Origin: a virus
Lineage: Duplodnaviria; Heunggongvirae; Uroviricota; Caudoviricetes
DNA: 6,762 nt
Virus record (IMG/VR): IMGVR_UViG_3300029878_000314
Location: 1-6,762 of that record
Direction: 5' to 3' (one strand)
Under the pieces are notes generated by a model. The model did not search any database. It had not been told where the DNA came from and was given only the letters and a program-made list of their open reading frames with translations. Positions 1 to 6,762 of the stretch are shown here, one piece after another. The translations under genes were made by a program, and so were the position numbers. How positions within the stretch are numbered: position 1 is the stretch's first letter; each line of letters opens with the position of its first letter.

Positions 1-723
<723 letters not shown>

Positions 724-740
724 ATTTTATAACCCAGAAC

Positions 741-768
741 GGGCGTCAGAAATGACGCCTTTTTTATT
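741..768 (+). terminator. Probable rho-independent terminator between J and lom
   Basis: Stem GGGCGTCA (741-748), loop GAAA, stem TGACGCC (753-759), followed immediately by the T-run TTTTTTATT (760-768). This is a GC-rich hairpin plus U-tract directly after the J stop. Confidence 0.6.
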
Positions 769-789
769 GCAGAAAAGCGAGAGGTAATT

Positions 790-1404
790 ATGCGTAAACT
801 TTATGCCGCCATTTTGTCCGCAGCCATTTTGTCCGCAGCCATTTGTCTGGCCGTATCCGGTGCGCCTGCATGGGCGTCTGAACATCAGTCCACGCTGAGC
901 GCGGGCTATCTTCATGCCCGGACGAACGTTTCCGGCAGCGATGATCTGAACGGGATTAACGTGAAATACCGTTATGAGTTTACGGACACGCTGGGAATGG
1001 TGACGTCATTCAGCTATGCAGGAGACAAGAATCGCCAGCTTACCCGTTACAGCGATACCCGCTGGCATGAAGATTCCGCGCGTAACCGCTGGTTCAGCGT
1101 GATGGCGGGGCCGTCTGTGCGCGTGAATGAATGGTTCAGCGCGTATGCGATGGCGGGTGTGGCTTACAGCCGTGTGTCGACTTTCTCCGGGGATTATCTC
1201 CGCGTAACTGACAACAAGGGGAAAACGCACGATGTGCTGACCGGAAGTGATGACGGTCGCCACAGCAACACGTCTCTGGCGTGGGGGGCTGGCGTGCAGT
1301 TTAACCCGACCGAATCCGTGGCCATTGATATTGCTTATGAAGGTTCCGGCAGTGGTGACTGGCGCACTGACGGTTTCATCGTGGGTGTCGGTTATAAATT
1401 CTGA
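790..1404 (+). CDS. lom: Lom outer-membrane protein (Ail/Lom/PagC/Rck family beta-barrel virulence-associated protein)
   Basis: 204-aa ORF with an N-terminal signal peptide ([12 protein letters not shown]…AWASEHQ) and C-terminal …[25 protein letters not shown] ending in Phe, typical of outer-membrane beta-barrels. It is near-identical to lambda Lom as I recall it. RBS GAGAGG at 775-780 precedes ATG 790. Position after J is the canonical lambda arrangement. Confidence 0.9.
808..837 (+). repeat. Perfect in-frame 15-bp tandem duplication (GCCATTTTGTCCGCA x2) inside the lom signal-peptide coding region
   Basis: Copy 1 at 808-822 and copy 2 at 823-837 are identical, followed by a related partial copy GCCATTTGT. 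They encode [10 protein letters not shown] in the hydrophobic core of the signal peptide. Confidence 0.9.
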
Positions 1405-1431
1405 TTAGCCAGGTAACACAGTGTTATGACA

Positions 1432-1457
1432 GCCCGCCGGTTCAGGCGGGCTTTTTT
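1432..1457 (+). terminator. Probable rho-independent terminator downstream of lom
   Basis: Stem GCCCGCC (1432-1438), loop GGTTCA, stem GGCGGGC (1445-1451), followed by TTTTTT (1452-1457). It lies 28 nt after the lom stop. Confidence 0.65.
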
Positions 1458-1468
1458 GTGGGGTGAAT

Positions 1469-4400
1469 ATGGCAGTAAAGATTTCAGGTGTACTGAAAGA
1501 CGGTGCAGGTAAACCGGTACAGAACTGTACAATCCAGCTGAAAGCAAAACGTAACAGCACCACGGTGGTGGCGAACACGGTGGCCTCAGAAAACCCGGAT
1601 GAAGCCGGGCGTTACAGCATGGACGTTGAGTACGGTCAGTACAGCGTTATTCTGTTGGTGGAAGGCTTCCCGCCATCGCATGCCGGGACCATCACCGTGT
1701 ATGAAGACTCACAACCGGGTACGCTGAATGATTTTCTCGGTGCCATGACGGAGGATGATGTCCGTCCGGAGGCACTGCGCCGCTTTGAACTGATGGTGGA
1801 AGAGGTGGCGCGTAACGCGTCCGCAGTGGCACAGAACACGGCAGCCGCGAAGAAGTCAGCCAGTGATGCCCGCACATCAGCCCGTGAGGCGGCAACCCAT
1901 GCGACTGATGCTGCGGACTCCGCACGCGCAGCCAGCACGTCAGCCGGACAGGCCGCGTCGTCGGCTCAGTCAGCGTCTTCCAGCGCAGGAACGGCATCAG
2001 CAAAGGCTACTGAAGCATCAAAAAGTGCTGCCGCTGCAGAGTCTTCAAAAAGCGCGGCAGCCACCAGTGCCGGTGCAGCGAAAACGTCAGAAACGAATGC
2101 CGCAGCATCACAAAAATCTGCGGCCACTTCTGCATCCACCGCGACCACGAAAGCGTCAGAAGCTGCCACCTCAGCCCGGGATGCGTCGGCTTCAAAAGTG
2201 GCGGCAAAATCATCAGAAACGAGCGCAGCCTCGAGCGCCGGCAGTGCAGCTTCCTCGGCAACGGCGGCAGGAAATTCCGCGAAGGCCGCAAAAACGTCTG
2301 AGACGAATGCGGATAACAGCGCACAGGCGGCAGCAGACTCACAAACTGCATCGGCAAATTCCGCGACAGCAGCCAAAAAATCAGAAACCAACGCGAAAAA
2401 TAGTGAGTCAGCAGCAAAGGTCAGCGAAACCAACGCTAAAGCGTCAGAGAACAAGGCGAAAGAATATCTCGACAAGGTCGGGGGACTCGTCAGCCCGATG
2501 ACGCAATACGATTGGCCTGTTGTTACTGCTAGTGAGTCTCTTTACATCAAGATCGCGAAACTTTCCGATCCTGGAACCAGCAGAAGTCATGTAACGCTAA
2601 TGGTTACTAACGCTGGTAACTACGGCTCCCCTTACGGAAACATTGACTTTATCGAGATCTCGGCGCGCGGTCTGCCTTCTTCGCTTACTGCGGATAATGT
2701 TTCTCGTCATCTGAGTATACGCCGCTTAGGGTCAACCGGGCTGACCGATAACAACCAGATGCGTTACGGCCTGGTTAAAGGTGACGGCTTTATTGAGGTT
2801 TGGGCATTCCAGGGTGCGTTTATTAACGACGCAAAGGTTGCGGTGCTGGCGCAGACAACACTAAGCACAGAATTATACATCCCAGACGGATTTGTTAAGC
2901 AAACCGCCGCGCCTTCTGGATATATTGAAGGCAACGTTGTAAGGATTTACGACCAGGTAAACAAGCCGACTAAAGCAGATTTGGGTCTTTCTAATGCTAT
3001 GCTTACAGGCGCTTTCGGTCTTGGCGGTAGCGGGATAGCAACAAACGGCAAGATGAGCGATGTAGAGATCTTAAAAGCTCTGCGTGACAAAGGTGGTCAT
3101 TTCTGGCGCGGTGATAAGCCGACCGGAAGCACGGCGACCCATTATGACCACGGTTCTGGTATATTCTCGCGGTGCGGCGATACGTGGTCTGCGATCAATA
3201 TCGACTTCAGAACAGGTAAGATCAAGGTTTACGCTGGTAACGATAGTGGACTTAATAGTGGTAAATTTTCCGTCAATGAGCTATACGGAACCCGAAACAA
3301 GCCGTCGAAATCGGATGTTGGACTTGGCAACGTAACTAACGATGCGCAGGTAAAAAAATCCGGCGATACCATGACAGGTGACTTGACAATCAAAAAAGGT
3401 ACACCGTCAGTCTTCCTGCGGGCAGACAGTGGAGTCACCGCTTTGCGGTTTTATACTGGCGATAACACAGAGCGCGGCATAATCTATGCTGGTCCTAACA
3501 CTGATTCGCTTGGCGAAGTTCGCATCAGGGCAAAGACAGCAGGGGGGACATCAGGAGGGGATCTTGTTGTTCGTCACGACGGGAGGGTTGAAGTCCGTGA
3601 TCTCACAGTAGCGTATAAAATTAAAAGCAGAACGATTGAGATTGCAAATACCGACACTGACTCATCGGCAACTACGCTAAGCATCTATGGAGTACAGCAC
3701 ACGCCGTTGGTTTTAACGCGTTCTGGTTCTTCTGAAAATGTGTCCATTGGGTTTAAGTTAGACAACGTGAACCCAAAGTATCTTGGAATTGATACTAATG
3801 GGGATCTGGCTTTTGGTGAGAGTCCTGATCAGAAACAAAACAGCAAATTGATCACGCAAGCGAAACTCGACAAGGGATTAACGATTGGTGGTCAACTGGC
3901 TTTCAAAGGTACGACAGCGTTTTCAGCCGCTGCTACGTTCAGTGCCGGGATAGCAGGAGCTATCGAGCCGGAAAACATTGGCGGCCAGAAGGTTGATCTT
4001 AACAACCTGACCATCAGGTCAGATGCCGGGGCGGTTAAATACTATAGTTGTCCATCCTCTGGAGGTGGTGCAAATATCACCAACAAGCCTGACGGTGTAA
4101 CCGGTAACTTTTTGCTCCGTGTAGAGTCGACTCGCAAAGTTTCTGCTTCGGATTATGCGAACATGCAAACGCTGATCAGCAACGACACAAAACGTATATA
4201 CGTTCGCTTTGTTGTTAATGGAAACTGGACAGCGTGGAGTCAGGTTGTTGTTTCCGGATGGAATCAGGATGTAACCGTCAGGTCGTTAACCTCGACGACT
4301 CCATCAAAATTAGGTGGCGGGCGGATTGATGTGCTTGGAAGTACGTCAGATTATGGCAGCATGAATTGTACCGTTCGTGGTGTTGATAGCACTGGAACCA

Positions 4401-5245
4401 ATTCGGCGTGGTCGGTAGGCACATCAGAAAGCACAGGCAAAATGTTGTTCCTGAAAAACCACAGAAGCAGCGCTCAAGTGCTGTTAAATGGCGATGATGG
4501 AGCGGTTCAACTACTAAGTGGCACTGTTAACGGTGCTACAGCGCAGGCGCTCACTATCAACAGGAATGAGGTTAACTCAACTGCCGATTTAGTAATTAGA
4601 AAACAAACAGGGACTGGCAATCGTTTTGCTTTACTTAATTCAGGTAATTCAGAACTACCAGTTAGTATCAGGGTGTGGGGTTCCAGTACTCGACAAAACG
4701 TTTTTGAGGTTGGAACGTCTGCTGCGTATCTGTTTTATGCGCAAAAAACAACAGACGGGCAAAACCTTACTGTAAACGGAAGTGTTAACTGCACCACACT
4801 GAATCAGTCATCAGACCGCAGACTGAAAGAAAATATCGAGATTATCGATAACGCGACTGACGCAATCCGCAAAATTAATGGATACACGTACACGCTCAAG
4901 GAGAATGGGGCACATTGCGCCGGGGTTATAGCCCAGGAAGTTGAAGAGGCCATCCCGGAGGCCGTTGGTTCATTCATCCATTACGGTGAAGAGTTGCAAG
5001 GCCCGACCGTTGACGGCAACGAGCTACGCGAAGAAACGCGCTATCTTAATGTTGACTACGCCGCCGTGACGGGTTTACTTGTTCAGGTCGCCCGTGAAAC
5101 AGATGATCGCGTTACCTCGCTGGAAGAGGAAAACACAACGCTACGTCAAAATCTGGCAACAGCAGACACCCGGATCAGCACTCTGGAAAATCAGGTAAGC
5201 GAACTGGTTGCACTTGTCCGGCAGTTAACAGGAAGCGAACATTGA
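1469..5245 (+). CDS. stf: Side tail fiber protein (Stf-like), mosaic: lambda-Stf-like N-terminal anchor with Ala/Ser/Thr repeat region, divergent distal domain, and C-terminal peptidase-S74-type intramolecular chaperone domain
   Basis: Supplied ORF 1463..5245 starts at GTG; I prefer the in-frame ATG at 1469, giving MAVKISGVLKDGAGKPVQNCTIQLKAKRNSTTV…, which matches the lambda Stf N-terminus from memory. The product is about 1258 aa. The C-terminal ~145 aa contain …NQSSDRRLKENIEIIDNATDAIRKINGYTYTLKE…, the hallmark of the self-cleaving chaperone domain of endosialidase-type tailspikes and T5 pb1-like fibers. Stop TGA at 5243-5245. Confidence 0.9.
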   Translation: MAVKISGVLKDGAGKPVQNCTIQLKAKRNSTTVVANTVASENPDEAGRYSMDVEYGQYSVILLVEGFPPSHAGTITVYEDSQPGTLNDFLGAMTEDDVRPEALRRFELMVEEVARNASAVAQNTAAAKKSASDARTSAREAATHATDAADSARAASTSAGQAASSAQSASSSAGTASAKATEASKSAAAAESSKSAAATSAGAAKTSETNAAASQKSAATSASTATTKASEAATSARDASASKVAAKSSETSAASSAGSAASSATAAGNSAKAAKTSETNADNSAQAAADSQTASANSATAAKKSETNAKNSESAAKVSETNAKASENKAKEYLDKVGGLVSPMTQYDWPVVTASESLYIKIAKLSDPGTSRSHVTLMVTNAGNYGSPYGNIDFIEISARGLPSSLTADNVSRHLSIRRLGSTGLTDNNQMRYGLVKGDGFIEVWAFQGAFINDAKVAVLAQTTLSTELYIPDGFVKQTAAPSGYIEGNVVRIYDQVNKPTKADLGLSNAMLTGAFGLGGSGIATNGKMSDVEILKALRDKGGHFWRGDKPTGSTATHYDHGSGIFSRCGDTWSAINIDFRTGKIKVYAGNDSGLNSGKFSVNELYGTRNKPSKSDVGLGNVTNDAQVKKSGDTMTGDLTIKKGTPSVFLRADSGVTALRFYTGDNTERGIIYAGPNTDSLGEVRIRAKTAGGTSGGDLVVRHDGRVEVRDLTVAYKIKSRTIEIANTDTDSSATTLSIYGVQHTPLVLTRSGSSENVSIGFKLDNVNPKYLGIDTNGDLAFGESPDQKQNSKLITQAKLDKGLTIGGQLAFKGTTAFSAAATFSAGIAGAIEPENIGGQKVDLNNLTIRSDAGAVKYYSCPSSGGGANITNKPDGVTGNFLLRVESTRKVSASDYANMQTLISNDTKRIYVRFVVNGNWTAWSQVVVSGWNQDVTVRSLTSTTPSKLGGGRIDVLGSTSDYGSMNCTVRGVDSTGTNSAWSVGTSESTGKMLFLKNHRSSAQVLLNGDDGAVQLLSGTVNGATAQALTINRNEVNSTADLVIRKQTGTGNRFALLNSGNSELPVSIRVWGSSTRQNVFEVGTSAAYLFYAQKTTDGQNLTVNGSVNCTTLNQSSDRRLKENIEIIDNATDAIRKINGYTYTLKENGAHCAGVIAQEVEEAIPEAVGSFIHYGEELQGPTVDGNELREETRYLNVDYAAVTGLLVQVARETDDRVTSLEEENTTLRQNLATADTRISTLENQVSELVALVRQLTGSEH
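1810..2460 (+). repeat. Low-complexity Ala/Ser/Thr-rich repeat region within stf (phage tail-fiber repeat-like, recurring AAKTSETNA-type motifs)
   Basis: The translation is dominated by A, S, T, K and E with recurring motifs (AAKTSETNAAAS, AAKTSETNADNS, AAKKSETNAKNS, AAKVSETNAKAS). The nucleotide sequence is GC-rich with reiterated GCN codons. Boundaries are approximate. Confidence 0.6.
4811..5242 (+). other. C-terminal intramolecular chaperone / autoproteolytic domain (peptidase S74-like) of Stf
   Basis: The motif S-D-R-R-L-K begins at the Ser codon 4811-4813, with Ser and Lys five residues apart as in the described Ser/Lys dyad of this family. Conserved-looking downstream block: ENIEII…INGYTYTLKE…GVIAQEVEE…LNVDYAAVTGLL…, ending in a heptad-like segment (LEEENTTLRQNL…LENQVSELVALVRQL). 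The domain boundary is inferred, not measured. Confidence 0.7.
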
Positions 5246-5290
5246 TATCCTTCAAGCTCTGAAGGAGGCTGTTCCCGGTACGTTCAGACT

Positions 5291-5428
5291 GTTGTTGAGC
5301 TGGAAATCGCAACGGAGGAAGAAACCTCATTGCTGGAAGCCTGGAAAAAGTATCGGGTGTTGCTGAACCGTGTTGATACATCAACTGCACCTGATATTGA
5401 GTGGCCTGCAAATCCTGTCAGGGAGTAA
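5291..5428 (+). pseudogene. tfa: Tail fiber assembly protein (tfa) 3' remnant, no start codon, about 45 C-terminal codons retained
   Basis: The translation in this frame is …[45 protein letters not shown], which matches the lambda Tfa C-terminus as I recall it (…[42 protein letters not shown]). There is no in-frame initiation codon between the stf stop and the homologous segment. Stop TAA at 5426-5428. Confidence 0.75.
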
Positions 5429-5477
5429 TCATTGGGATTATGCCGCAGCACGTCTTAAGCAAGAACGTGCTGCGGTT
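5300..5477 (+). repeat. Direct repeat copy A (about 178 bp; tfa 3' coding end plus downstream hairpin)
   Basis: Aligns base-for-base with 6349-6527 at offset +1049 (+1050 after a 1-nt indel in the hairpin). There are roughly 11 mismatches in the 129-nt coding part (about 91% identity). The 3' untranslated part is almost identical except in the hairpin loop. Confidence 0.85.
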
Positions 5478-5491
5478 GGATGCTATTTTTT
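5442..5491 (+). terminator. Stem-loop between the convergent tfa remnant and the methyltransferase gene; possible terminator or RNA-stability element
   Basis: 11-bp stem: GCCGCAGCACG (5442-5452) pairs with CGTGCTGCGGT (5466-5476), with a 13-nt loop. A T6 run at 5486-5491 lies about 9 nt downstream, not immediately adjacent, so this is not a canonical intrinsic terminator. A homologous hairpin exists in copy B at about 6491-6527. Confidence 0.35.
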
Positions 5492-6151
5492 CCCTGAAGC
5501 GGAAAACATTACTACAGTACCTTGAACCTTGGTTTTAACATTCTCGAAATGCTCTGAGAGTATATGTGTTAAGCCTTCTTCGGAATCTTTTGTGTTTGAA
5601 AAGATGCCTTTCTGATTGTAAATGCGCATCAGTTTTTGACCGAAGCTATTGTGCACAACTCCATCGCCAAGAATTGTGGCTCCGTATAGAGTTCCATCGT
5701 CAGTTAAGGCCTGCGCCGCATTGCGTATTACACAGCTTTTTGTAGATATATTTCCAGGCAGGCAGTGAAGAAGGTAAAACATGGAAATGGAATCAAATTG
5801 ACCATGTAACGCCGCGGGATAAGGTTCAAAAACATCATGGCTAATTTTATGTTTAATTTTTGATTCCCCAGCCCTTGTAGATGCCGCGTTCAGGCTAGCT
5901 TCGTTCAAATCCATTAAAGATATCAGACTACTCTCAGGTACGTGAGTAAGGTAAAACCCAGTTCCAACACCAATATCCAGATGGTTGTTACCTACATGTT
6001 CCAGAAAGTGTGGAAGAAGGTGTTCCTTTGTAGGACATCCCCATGCAAGCCGATTTGATACTCCCAAAACCCACCAGTCATAAAGCTTTAGGGTAAGTGG
6101 TGTGTAAATTTTAGCCCCATCATCTGTGTTTTTTTTCATTGATTTCACCAT
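5483..6151 (-). CDS. Class I (Rossmann-fold) SAM-dependent methyltransferase-like protein, about 218-222 aa, probably a moron (accessory cargo gene)
   Basis: Minus-strand ORF. The translation carries a glycine-rich SAM-binding motif I (HLDIGVGTGFY), a post-I acidic strand (ISLMDLNE), a motif II-like block (FDSISMFYLLHCLP) and a motif III-like block (LTDDGTLYG). There is no DPPY/NPPY or PC/ENV motif, so a small-molecule, protein or RNA methyltransferase is more likely than a DNA methyltransferase. It is visibly more AT-rich than the flanking phage genes. The alternative start at the second Met (rc of 6137-6139) has a better SD (GGTGA, 5-nt spacer). From memory this resembles ybcY of E. coli K-12 DLP12, which sits between tfa fragments; that is unverified. 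Confidence 0.75.
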   Translation of the reverse strand: MVKSMKKNTDDGAKIYTPLTLKLYDWWVLGVSNRLAWGCPTKEHLLPHFLEHVGNNHLDIGVGTGFYLTHVPESSLISLMDLNEASLNAASTRAGESKIKHKISHDVFEPYPAALHGQFDSISMFYLLHCLPGNISTKSCVIRNAAQALTDDGTLYGATILGDGVVHNSFGQKLMRIYNQKGIFSNTKDSEEGLTHILSEHFENVKTKVQGTVVMFSASGKK

Positions 6152-6207
6152 GTTATAGTTTTATTTGTGAATTAAATCAATTATGGCGATGAATTACAAG
6201 GGGTTAA
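6152..6207. promoter_or_regulatory. AT-rich divergent intergenic region between the methyltransferase gene (-) and the tfa-like ORF (+); probable promoter region
   Basis: 56-bp AT-rich spacer between divergently oriented start codons. I could not place convincing -35/-10 hexamers by eye, so this is a positional inference only. Confidence 0.3.
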
Positions 6208-6477
6208 ATGCTGCCGCAGCATAGCGATATTGAAATAGCCTGGTATGCTTCGATACAGCAGGAGCCGAATGGCTGGAAGACCGTCACCACACAGTTCTAC
6301 ATCCAGGAATTCAGTGAGTATATTGCGCCACTGCAGGATGCTGTAGATCTGGAAATCGCAACGGAGGAAGAAAGATCGTTGCTGGAGGCATGGAATAAAT
6401 ATCGGGTATTGTTGAATCGTGTTGATACATCAACTGTACCTGATATTGAGTGGCCTGCAAATCCTGTCAGGGAGTAA
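6208..6477 (+). CDS. Short tail-fiber-assembly-like protein (Tfa C-terminal domain fused to a novel about 35-aa N-terminus); TfaX-like fragment, function uncertain
   Basis: 89-aa ORF. The C-terminal half (…[53 protein letters not shown]) matches the lambda Tfa C-terminus as I recall it. The N-terminal portion ([35 protein letters not shown]) is not recognisably Tfa. Possible SD AAGGGG at 6198-6203 with a short 4-nt spacer before ATG 6208. It may be a remnant rather than a functional gene. Confidence 0.55.
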
Positions 6478-6527
6478 TCATTGGGATTATGCCGCAGACA
6501 CGTCGTATGCAGGAACGTGCTGCGGTT
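6349..6527 (+). repeat. Direct repeat copy B (about 179 bp; tfa 3' coding end plus downstream hairpin)
   Basis: Partner of 5300-5477; see copy A. Most coding differences between the copies are synonymous or conservative (T/R, K/N, A/V at the protein level). Confidence 0.85.
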
Positions 6528-6591
6528 AGTTTGTGAGCTTTCGATAGTGGTTGTTATTTTTGCCCTTATTTGTTCCGGAGGCCATGGTTCA

Positions 6592-6762
6592 ATGGTCCGT
6601 CTGCCCCCTGTGGTGATGTCAGCAAAATCAGCCACTGCGCGAACCACAATAGCCCGGGAAGATGCTGAAGATCACCAGGTAAAGCTGTCAGCGCAGAAAC
6701 TGGAAGAACTGCTCGCATCAATGGTTAAGGATGAGGTTGATCGCAATGATGGGATTTATTGA
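6592..6762 (+). CDS. Hypothetical small protein (about 56 aa; alternative start ATG 6616 gives 48 aa)
   Basis: The supplied ORF 6481..6762 has no plausible RBS at its 5' end. The internal ATG at 6592 is preceded by GGAGG (6577-6581) with a 10-nt spacer. The translation (MVRLPPVVMSAKSATARTTIAREDAEDHQVKLSAQKLEELLASMVKDEVDRNDGIY) has no family I recognise. Stop TGA at 6760-6762 is the last three bases of the window. Confidence 0.4.
   Translation: MVRLPPVVMSAKSATARTTIAREDAEDHQVKLSAQKLEELLASMVKDEVDRNDGIY

Follow-up and report, generated by a model that had tools for sequence, protein, structure and literature searches.

A lambdoid side tail fibre with a C-terminal S74-type chaperone domain next to a residual tfa 3' end

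The side tail fibre gene stf lies on a stretch of viral DNA of 6,762 nucleotides (Caudoviricetes; positions 1 to 6,762 of IMG/VR record IMGVR_UViG_3300029878_000314), the whole of which was analysed and is referred to here as the window. Its product Stf combines a lambda-type tail-attachment domain with a C-terminal domain of the Peptidase_S74 family of intramolecular chaperones, and the gene is followed by a mere 3' remnant of tfa, which in lambda-type systems encodes the separate fibre chaperone Tfa. We take this locus to encode a self-chaperoning side tail fibre, with the tfa remnant as the scar of one ancestral recombination, and put the probability of this reading as a whole at about 0.8. 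The evidence comprises the domain match, the catalytic residues, the identity of the junction behind stf, three complete phages that lack tfa beyond such a remnant, and the mosaic boundaries of the fibre.

In the list of open reading frames (ORFs), stf is uninterrupted (1463..5245, plus strand) and encodes a precursor of 1260 amino acids and 131.6 kDa. Its last 144 residues (aa 1117-1260, 15.97 kDa; 4811..5242, plus strand) were assigned as the intramolecular chaperone on the basis of Pfam family PF13884 (Peptidase_S74, 'chaperone of endosialidase'), which matched aa 1117-1168 (4811-4966) with an E-value of 2.6e-16 and a bit score, 60.1, above the gathering score of 22. The 144-residue segment searched alone gave an E-value of 1.2e-17. 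This match is far beyond chance, and the profile search that a preliminary description of this DNA, made from the letters alone, had proposed as a check on an S74-type end of Stf was therefore positive. The chaperone occupies the extreme C-terminus of the protein, directly after the distal domain and up to the last residue, 1260, which is where such domains lie in fibre and spike proteins (trimers, where these have been studied). Codon 1117, encoding the first serine of the SDRRLK motif, starts at nucleotide 4811 (1463+3x1116), and 5245 is the final base of the stf TGA, so that the earlier placement of the domain between SDRRLK and 5245 was exact.

The catalytic site was assigned by alignment with the fibre protein pb1 of phage T5. 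SSDRRLK aligned onto TSDARLK of pb1, placing Ser1117 and Lys1122 of Stf on pb1 Ser1264 and Lys1269, although a direct BLASTP comparison of Stf with T5 pb1 was not significant (E 0.91). Cleavage of pb1 takes place between Thr1263 and Ser1264; Lys1269 activates this serine, and the substitution S1264A stops processing (PMC4690869). Ser1116/Ser1117 is correspondingly the predicted scissile bond in Stf, and Ser1117 (4811-4813) and Lys1122 (4826-4828) form the predicted catalytic pair (4808..4828, plus strand). S1117, D1118, L1121 and K1122 were invariant across 22 homologues of 51-91% identity. The ratio of nonsynonymous to synonymous substitution rates (dN/dS) of the chaperone was about 0.16-0.25 against five homologues, indicating that the domain evolves under purifying selection. 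In addition, the best sequence match among solved structures was the gp37 tail fibre of Salmonella phage S16 (PDB 6F45, E 8e-9), in which SSDRRIK falls on SSDRRLK and is followed, as in Stf, by a GYTY...AGxIAQEVE block. Taken together, these features suggest that the C-terminus of Stf is probably self-cleaving and is released as a fragment of 16.0 kDa; the fragment of about 16 kDa expected earlier agrees with the size computed for the predicted product.

Whereas a lambda-type Stf is directly followed by its cognate full-length tfa, stf in the window is followed by a stub of 48 codons. A tblastn search of the window with the full 194-residue Tfa of phage PhiR30_1 found no full-length tfa and two partial copies only, neither of which contains both the N-terminal and the C-terminal domain of a complete Tfa. 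The copy next to stf (5282..5427, plus strand) corresponds to Tfa residues 147-194 plus the stop codon and is in frame with stf. It matches positions 86-130 of 131 of the Pfam profile Caudo_TAP (PF02413) with an E-value of 1.4e-20, and no in-frame ATG, GTG or TTG occurs from the stf stop to the stub stop. The N-terminal domain of Tfa, which binds the fibre, is variable, and the C-terminal helical domain is conserved (PMC9608196, citing North et al. 2019). As the stub keeps only part of this conserved end, it cannot act as a fibre-specific chaperone; conservation of the C-terminal domain also makes the tfa 3' end a stretch of homology shared among phages. That the stub is promoter-less, as had been pointed out, tells little, since tfa of lambda likewise has no promoter of its own.

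The junction between stf and the stub was compared among S74-type loci in three complete phages (Ayreon, mEp460 and PhiR70_1) and in prophages of Escherichia coli strains WP5-S17-ESBL-10 (WP5 in the following) and STEC346, along with two more E. coli prophage loci. The 36-nucleotide spacer that separates the stf stop from the stub (5246..5281, plus strand) is not homologous to the tfa loci of lambda, PhiR30_1 and K-12 tfaD, in all of which classical tfa homology begins at about position 5283, and is identical or near-identical in the window, Ayreon, mEp460, PhiR70_1, WP5 and STEC346. In every S74-type locus examined, the stub starts exactly 37 nucleotides past the stf stop, and the two further E. 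coli loci keep this junction though their tip and chaperone are only 62% and 73% identical to those of the window. An identical junction across the S74-type loci implies that a single event both cut tfa and brought in the chaperone-bearing end, and we read the stub as a scar that one ancestral replacement left behind rather than as the result of gradual decay. Thus, of the earlier proposal that the adjacent tfa had decayed to a 3' stub, the stub itself stands, with 48 codons and no start codon, while progressive decay gives way to a single recombination step. Erosion followed the event: the STEC346 stub carries a nonsense codon, and the stubs of mEp460 and PhiR70_1 lack the last seven codons or so. 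Relaxed selection on the stub was judged by these truncations, the nonsense allele and the missing start codon, as dN/dS over its 41 codons was too noisy. All S74-type loci examined have the stub in frame with stf, with only the TGA and 12 sense codons in between, and this placement is probably an inherited accident. There is also a recurrent homology breakpoint about 22 nucleotides before the tfa stop, where mEp460 and PhiR70_1 diverge from the window (5405/5406).

Stf as a whole is a mosaic, as judged from the alignments, of a lambda-type N-terminal attachment domain with an Ala-Ser linker, a long shaft, a T5-pb1-type tip and the 144-residue S74 chaperone. The tail-attachment domain (aa 3-136; 1469..1870, plus strand) matches Pfam PF08400 (phage_tail_N) with an E-value of 1.1e-71, and both this domain and the place of the gene after J and lom are those of a lambda-type Stf. 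Lambda Stf is 86% identical over aa 1-286, with no homology past aa 286 or so. The left mosaic boundary zone is an Ala/Ser/Thr-rich low-complexity segment of 209 residues (aa 137-345; 1871..2497, plus strand; 67% A+S+T), in or just past which the homology of the lambda, PhiR30_1 and mEp460 fibres stops (aa 217-333). The WP5 stf, annotated as frameshifted and incomplete, loses its homology to the window Stf at about aa 165-207, and long antisense ORFs overlie 1871-2497, as expected from the A/S/T-rich composition. A search of stf for tandem repeats yielded nothing of relevance. The Ayreon fibre is 82% identical to the window Stf along its full length, whereas mEp460 shares aa 1-333 and aa 936-1260 and differs in the shaft, its tip and chaperone being 76% identical.

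The presumed receptor-binding distal tip (aa 936-1116; 4268..4810, plus strand) was delimited as part of the tip-chaperone region common to mEp460 and slur09. The latter is a T5-like Tequintavirus whose 1272-residue L-shaped fibre is 65% identical to Stf over aa 936-1241, covering tip and chaperone; the likeness of this fibre to T5 pb1 is one of gene position and size. Alignment with slur09 indicates that tip and chaperone can travel together, in line with the earlier suggestion that fibre tip and folding mechanism had been swapped as a unit. The coupling is looser than that suggestion implied, since PhiR70_1 shares only aa 1-406 and 1092-1260 with the window Stf and carries the identical type of chaperone and stub behind an unrelated tip. 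Just upstream of the predicted cleavage site, Stf residues 1060-1116 or so (about 4640-4810) contain a motif, SIRVWG...TR..VFEVG...FY.Q, in common with gp34, the proximal long tail fibre of T4 (PDB 4uxe and 5nxf, profile E 6e-9).

Among five lambdoid S74-type loci, a 60-nucleotide identity profile delimited a conserved nucleotide block (4986..5405, plus strand) that spans the predicted C-terminal coiled coil of the chaperone, the stop codon, the spacer and the stub. Identity within it was 83-100%, except for 67% in the P0083 locus at 4986-5045, compared with 58-75% over 4806-4985, where the chaperone begins, and 23-97% over the tip. By this profile, the conserved unit among lambdoid loci is the C-terminal third of the chaperone together with spacer and stub; the homology to slur09 ends inside the block, at about 5105-5165. 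The block is probably a right-hand homology arm for further tip exchange. Among 5426 complete E. coli genomes, 4855 have sequences of the tfa 3' end, often several times per genome. We tentatively consider the further possibility, to which we give less than even odds, that these roughly 400 nucleotides including the dead stub have been retained because they serve as a shared recombination arm, both for tip swaps and for the exchange of Tfa-dependent and self-chaperoning cassettes in either direction.

Searched by tblastn with the full Tfa, the complete Ayreon (44.7 kb), mEp460 (44.5 kb) and PhiR70_1 (48.8 kb) genomes showed no Tfa-like sequence besides the stub, which fits Tfa being dispensable for this type of fibre and does not prove it. 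For the fibre itself we infer trimer-dependent self-cleavage and independence of Tfa. If Stf behaves like T5 pb1 and the K1F endosialidase, folding of the distal fibre would be nucleated and set in register by the chaperone domains of all three chains in the nascent trimer. After correct folding of the trimer, Lys1122 would activate Ser1117 for a cut between Ser1116 and Ser1117, and this cut would free the 16-kDa fragment and unmask the receptor-binding tip. With a built-in chaperone folding the fibre, a separate lambda-type Tfa would not be needed. The chaperone-bearing fibre end would have entered a lambdoid stf-tfa locus by one ancestral recombination, the right-hand junction of which, inside tfa at about codon 142-147, would have removed the first three quarters of Tfa, the part that binds the fibre, and left the 48-codon stub as a non-coding scar. 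Since then, the C-terminal third of the chaperone, the spacer and the stub would have moved jointly as a conserved block behind varying tips.

Several observations weigh against this reading. Cleavage and folding are argued from homology alone, and the fold could not be backed by structure prediction. An AlphaFold2 monomer model of aa 936-1260, built from the 22-sequence alignment and not used as evidence, was poor, with a mean predicted local distance difference test score (pLDDT) of 50 and a predicted template modelling score of 0.26; low confidence is expected where an obligate trimer is modelled as a monomer. A Foldseek search of this model against the PDB gave no significant match (best E 0.37). 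Chains of the K1F chaperone (3gw6) appeared at rank 4 and at ranks 8-12 with E-values of 0.6-0.9, the query being the poor monomer model. Given this model and the Foldseek result, the fold past the first 52 or so residues of the chaperone, those covered by Pfam, is unsupported by structure. Sequence and profile searches of the PDB reached S16 gp37, T4 gp34 and the tail needle gp26 of P22 but found neither of the chaperone entries for T5 pb1 and K1F. The mechanism proposed for T5 includes, beyond the catalytic pair, 'folding sensor' residues upstream of the cut, Arg1250 and Asp1239, which the neighbouring chain supplies. In several close relatives stf is frameshifted or split, so the fibre is not always maintained. 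The deposited hosts are E. coli K12 for Ayreon, E. coli for mEp460 and E. coli C for PhiR70_1, and such growth hosts may supply Tfa from prophages of their own, K-12 from cryptic ones. Side tail fibres are, moreover, dispensable for growth and plaque formation of lambda in the laboratory. With dispensable fibres and a possible supply of Tfa by the host, the viability of phages without tfa does not prove that their fibres fold without it.

The full fold of such chaperones combines a trimeric helical coiled coil with beta-hairpin 'tentacles'. Beyond the N-terminal third of the chaperone that is covered by Pfam, the assignment is backed by a predicted helix and matches of coiled-coil type only. 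The model contains a long C-terminal helix, possibly a coiled coil (aa 1199-1259, query residues 264-324; 5057..5239, plus strand), with pLDDT values of 52 at its start and 74-87 at its end. The heptads of Stf aa 1217-1259 or so (5110-5239) resemble the coiled coil of P22 gp26 (PDB 4lin, profile E 1.5e-6), and this gp26-like region would fit a trimeric helical bundle.

The most serious alternative is that the locus is a decaying cryptic-prophage relic with a vestigial S74 domain, which yields no functional fibre and tells nothing about chaperone replacement. The stf genes of WP5 and STEC346 are indeed annotated as frameshifted or partial pseudogenes, related loci lie at prophage ends adjoining chromosomal genes or insertion sequence elements, and lambda PaPa lost stf without loss of viability (PMC11990801). 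Against this, the 3783-nucleotide stf ORF of the window is intact despite its 209-residue low-complexity segment, the catalytic residues are invariant and the chaperone is under the constraint described above. In addition, the intact architecture occurs in three complete phages, with fibres of 1252 (Ayreon), 1202 (mEp460) and 830 residues (PhiR70_1). We therefore regard decay as unlikely.

Somewhat less likely still is that the S74 domain acts as no more than a self-removing cap and that the fibre still requires a trans-acting Tfa, either from another prophage or from an 89-residue TfaX-like ORF in the window. The abundance of tfa 3' ends in E. coli genomes would favour such a supply, as would the fact that this ORF starts with ATG, has the conserved C-terminal region of Tfa and lies 1 kb downstream. 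The fibre is bound, however, by the variable N-terminal domain of Tfa (PMC9608196), which TfaX does not possess. TfaX-like ORFs also stand behind an intact tfa in PhiR30_1 and are truncated or stop-bearing in other genomes; Ayreon, mEp460 and PhiR70_1 have none. Moreover, C-terminal fragments of T5 pb1 fold and are processed without Tfa (PMC4690869). TfaX as a substitute chaperone was rejected, as the fibre-binding domain is missing and the ORF is not kept across phages. Read-through of the stf TGA into the stub, yielding a minor fusion of Stf and the Tfa C-terminus with a role in assembly, is very improbable and was likewise rejected: the conserved shared frame speaks for it but has a one-in-three chance of arising by accident and would then have passed to all loci from their common ancestor, cleavage would remove the extension along with the C-terminal fragment, the stub has a nonsense codon in STEC346 and has lost its last seven or so codons in mEp460 and PhiR70_1, and no read-through signal was found.

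The window Stf shares features with several known systems. Like T5 pb1, it is a long siphovirus lateral fibre ending in a tip and an S74 chaperone, with the xS|DxRLK motif, Ser and Lys five residues apart, and a chaperone of 133-144 residues with a helical coiled coil, which in Stf is a predicted one. Unlike pb1, to which the pairwise match was not significant, its N-terminal half is lambda-type and its gene stands in the lambdoid J-lom-stf context; the last 20 to 45 residues or so of Stf and the DNA downstream are also lambdoid-specific when compared with T5-type fibres. With the Stf and Tfa of lambda (Ur-lambda) it has the PF08400 N-terminus, the genomic position and a tfa 3' end that is still present in common, whereas the window Stf ends in an S74 chaperone and Tfa residues 1-146 are deleted. 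The chaperone of the K1F endosialidase (PDB 3GW6), the prototype of Peptidase_S74, belongs to the same Pfam family and has the catalytic Ser/Lys mechanism that was transposed to T5 (PMC4690869), but is part of a tailspike enzyme, not a fibre, and has no detectable pairwise or profile sequence match to Stf. S16 gp37 differs as a long tail fibre of a myovirus that works with a separate adhesin, gp38, and the remainder of the protein is unrelated to Stf. A documented parallel is a pair of Teseptimavirus phages of the BASEL collection, of which MeretOppenheim has the chaperone built into the fibre and EmilieLinder has a separate Mu-like Tfa (PMC11990801). There, too, the fibres of closely related phages rely in one case on an intramolecular chaperone and in the other on Tfa as a protein of its own; the pair belongs to another phage group, and a leftover tfa scar was not reported for it.

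The second tfa fragment of the window has a different history. It lies within the 89-residue TfaX-like ORF (6208..6477, plus strand), of which only 6301-6474 are homologous to Tfa (residues 137-194); residues 31-86 of the ORF match Caudo_TAP positions 75-130, and its first 30 residues are not Tfa-like. Between the two fragments, on the minus strand, stands a ybcY-like gene (5483..6151) for a class I S-adenosylmethionine-dependent methyltransferase of 222 residues, assigned by Pfam methyltransferase domains. This gene is flanked by a direct repeat of 193 nucleotides (copy 1 at 5285..5477, copy 2 at 6334..6527, plus strand; 90% identical) that comprises the tfa 3' end and a downstream hairpin, the two tfa fragments being the repeat cores. 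In PhiR30_1, a classical stf is followed by an intact tfa of 194 codons, the YbcY methyltransferase on the opposite strand and the same TfaX-like ORF. The DLP12 prophage of K-12 has the order tfaD-ybcY-tfaX, with ybcY as a pseudogene and a TfaX equal to the ORF of the window. The occurrence of this order also behind an intact tfa marks it as an older module, to which the fragment at 6208-6477 belongs and which is unrelated to the chaperone swap. The tfa fragments of which the preliminary description spoke are real, and the arrangements in PhiR30_1 and DLP12 rule out the one at 6208-6477 as a decay product of the swap. The methyltransferase looks like an inserted accessory gene outside the fibre system. 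It is intact in the window and convergent with stf, and a promoter-like site was noted at 6207-6180 on the minus strand. A breakpoint matching that in the stub occurs in copy 2 at 6455, where K-12 tfaX and many E. coli genomes diverge.

By gene content, the whole window comes from a lambdoid prophage, namely from its tail-fibre end, with the genes arranged as J, lom and stf. Upstream of stf lie the C-terminus of J (7-723, Pfam Ig_GpJ_C) and lom (790-1404, Pfam Ail_Lom), in the same order as in lambda. A strong intrinsic-terminator-like hairpin between lom and stf (1431..1452, plus strand) has an 8-bp stem with seven G-C pairs followed by a T run, and terminators are annotated at the equivalent site in Ayreon and mEp460. 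E. coli chromosomes match the entire window, the best full-length match being WP5 with 97.8% identity and 100% over 4811-5480. The sites of the fibre module differ, as the WP5 prophage adjoins ompW/yciE/trpA and that of STEC346 adjoins appY/ompT, the DLP12 position. The tblastn match to the STEC346 stf is uninterrupted, yet its NCBI annotation divides the gene in two. At the right-hand end, an ORF of 93 residues begins at 6481 and closes with a stop codon where the window ends, at 6762; it had no significant match in a Pfam search, and its WP5 equivalent is annotated by NCBI as a DUF4376 pseudogene with an internal stop.

The chaperone segment was detected at a coverage of at least 80% in 800 of 5426 complete E. 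coli genomes (about 15%), and in 798 of these 800 the best match runs on into the stub. NCBI names such proteins 'pyocin knob domain-containing S74 family peptidase' or 'prophage tail fiber N-terminal domain and S74 family ...'; an NCBIfam search of Stf gave no family match, so these names come from other rules. No publication on this locus or its tfa scar turned up when the literature was searched for intramolecular chaperones in lambdoid Stf proteins, and a Nature 2024 paper on lambda Stf engineering does not mention chaperones. The architecture is widespread in E. coli and an ordinary example of a kind already known, and the lambdoid case with its scar adds a detail to an existing framework: earlier work has described S74 chaperones, how they are transferred horizontally with T5-like tips, and the alternation of intramolecular chaperone and Tfa in related phages, and no new question is raised. 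What the locus offers is a clean natural case in which a separate Tfa and a built-in self-cleaving chaperone were exchanged in one locus, with the junction still legible. In practice, engineered lambda-based particles with chimeric side fibres could carry S74-ended tips without co-expression of a chaperone, and the conserved block would provide a natural fusion point for such chimeric fibres.

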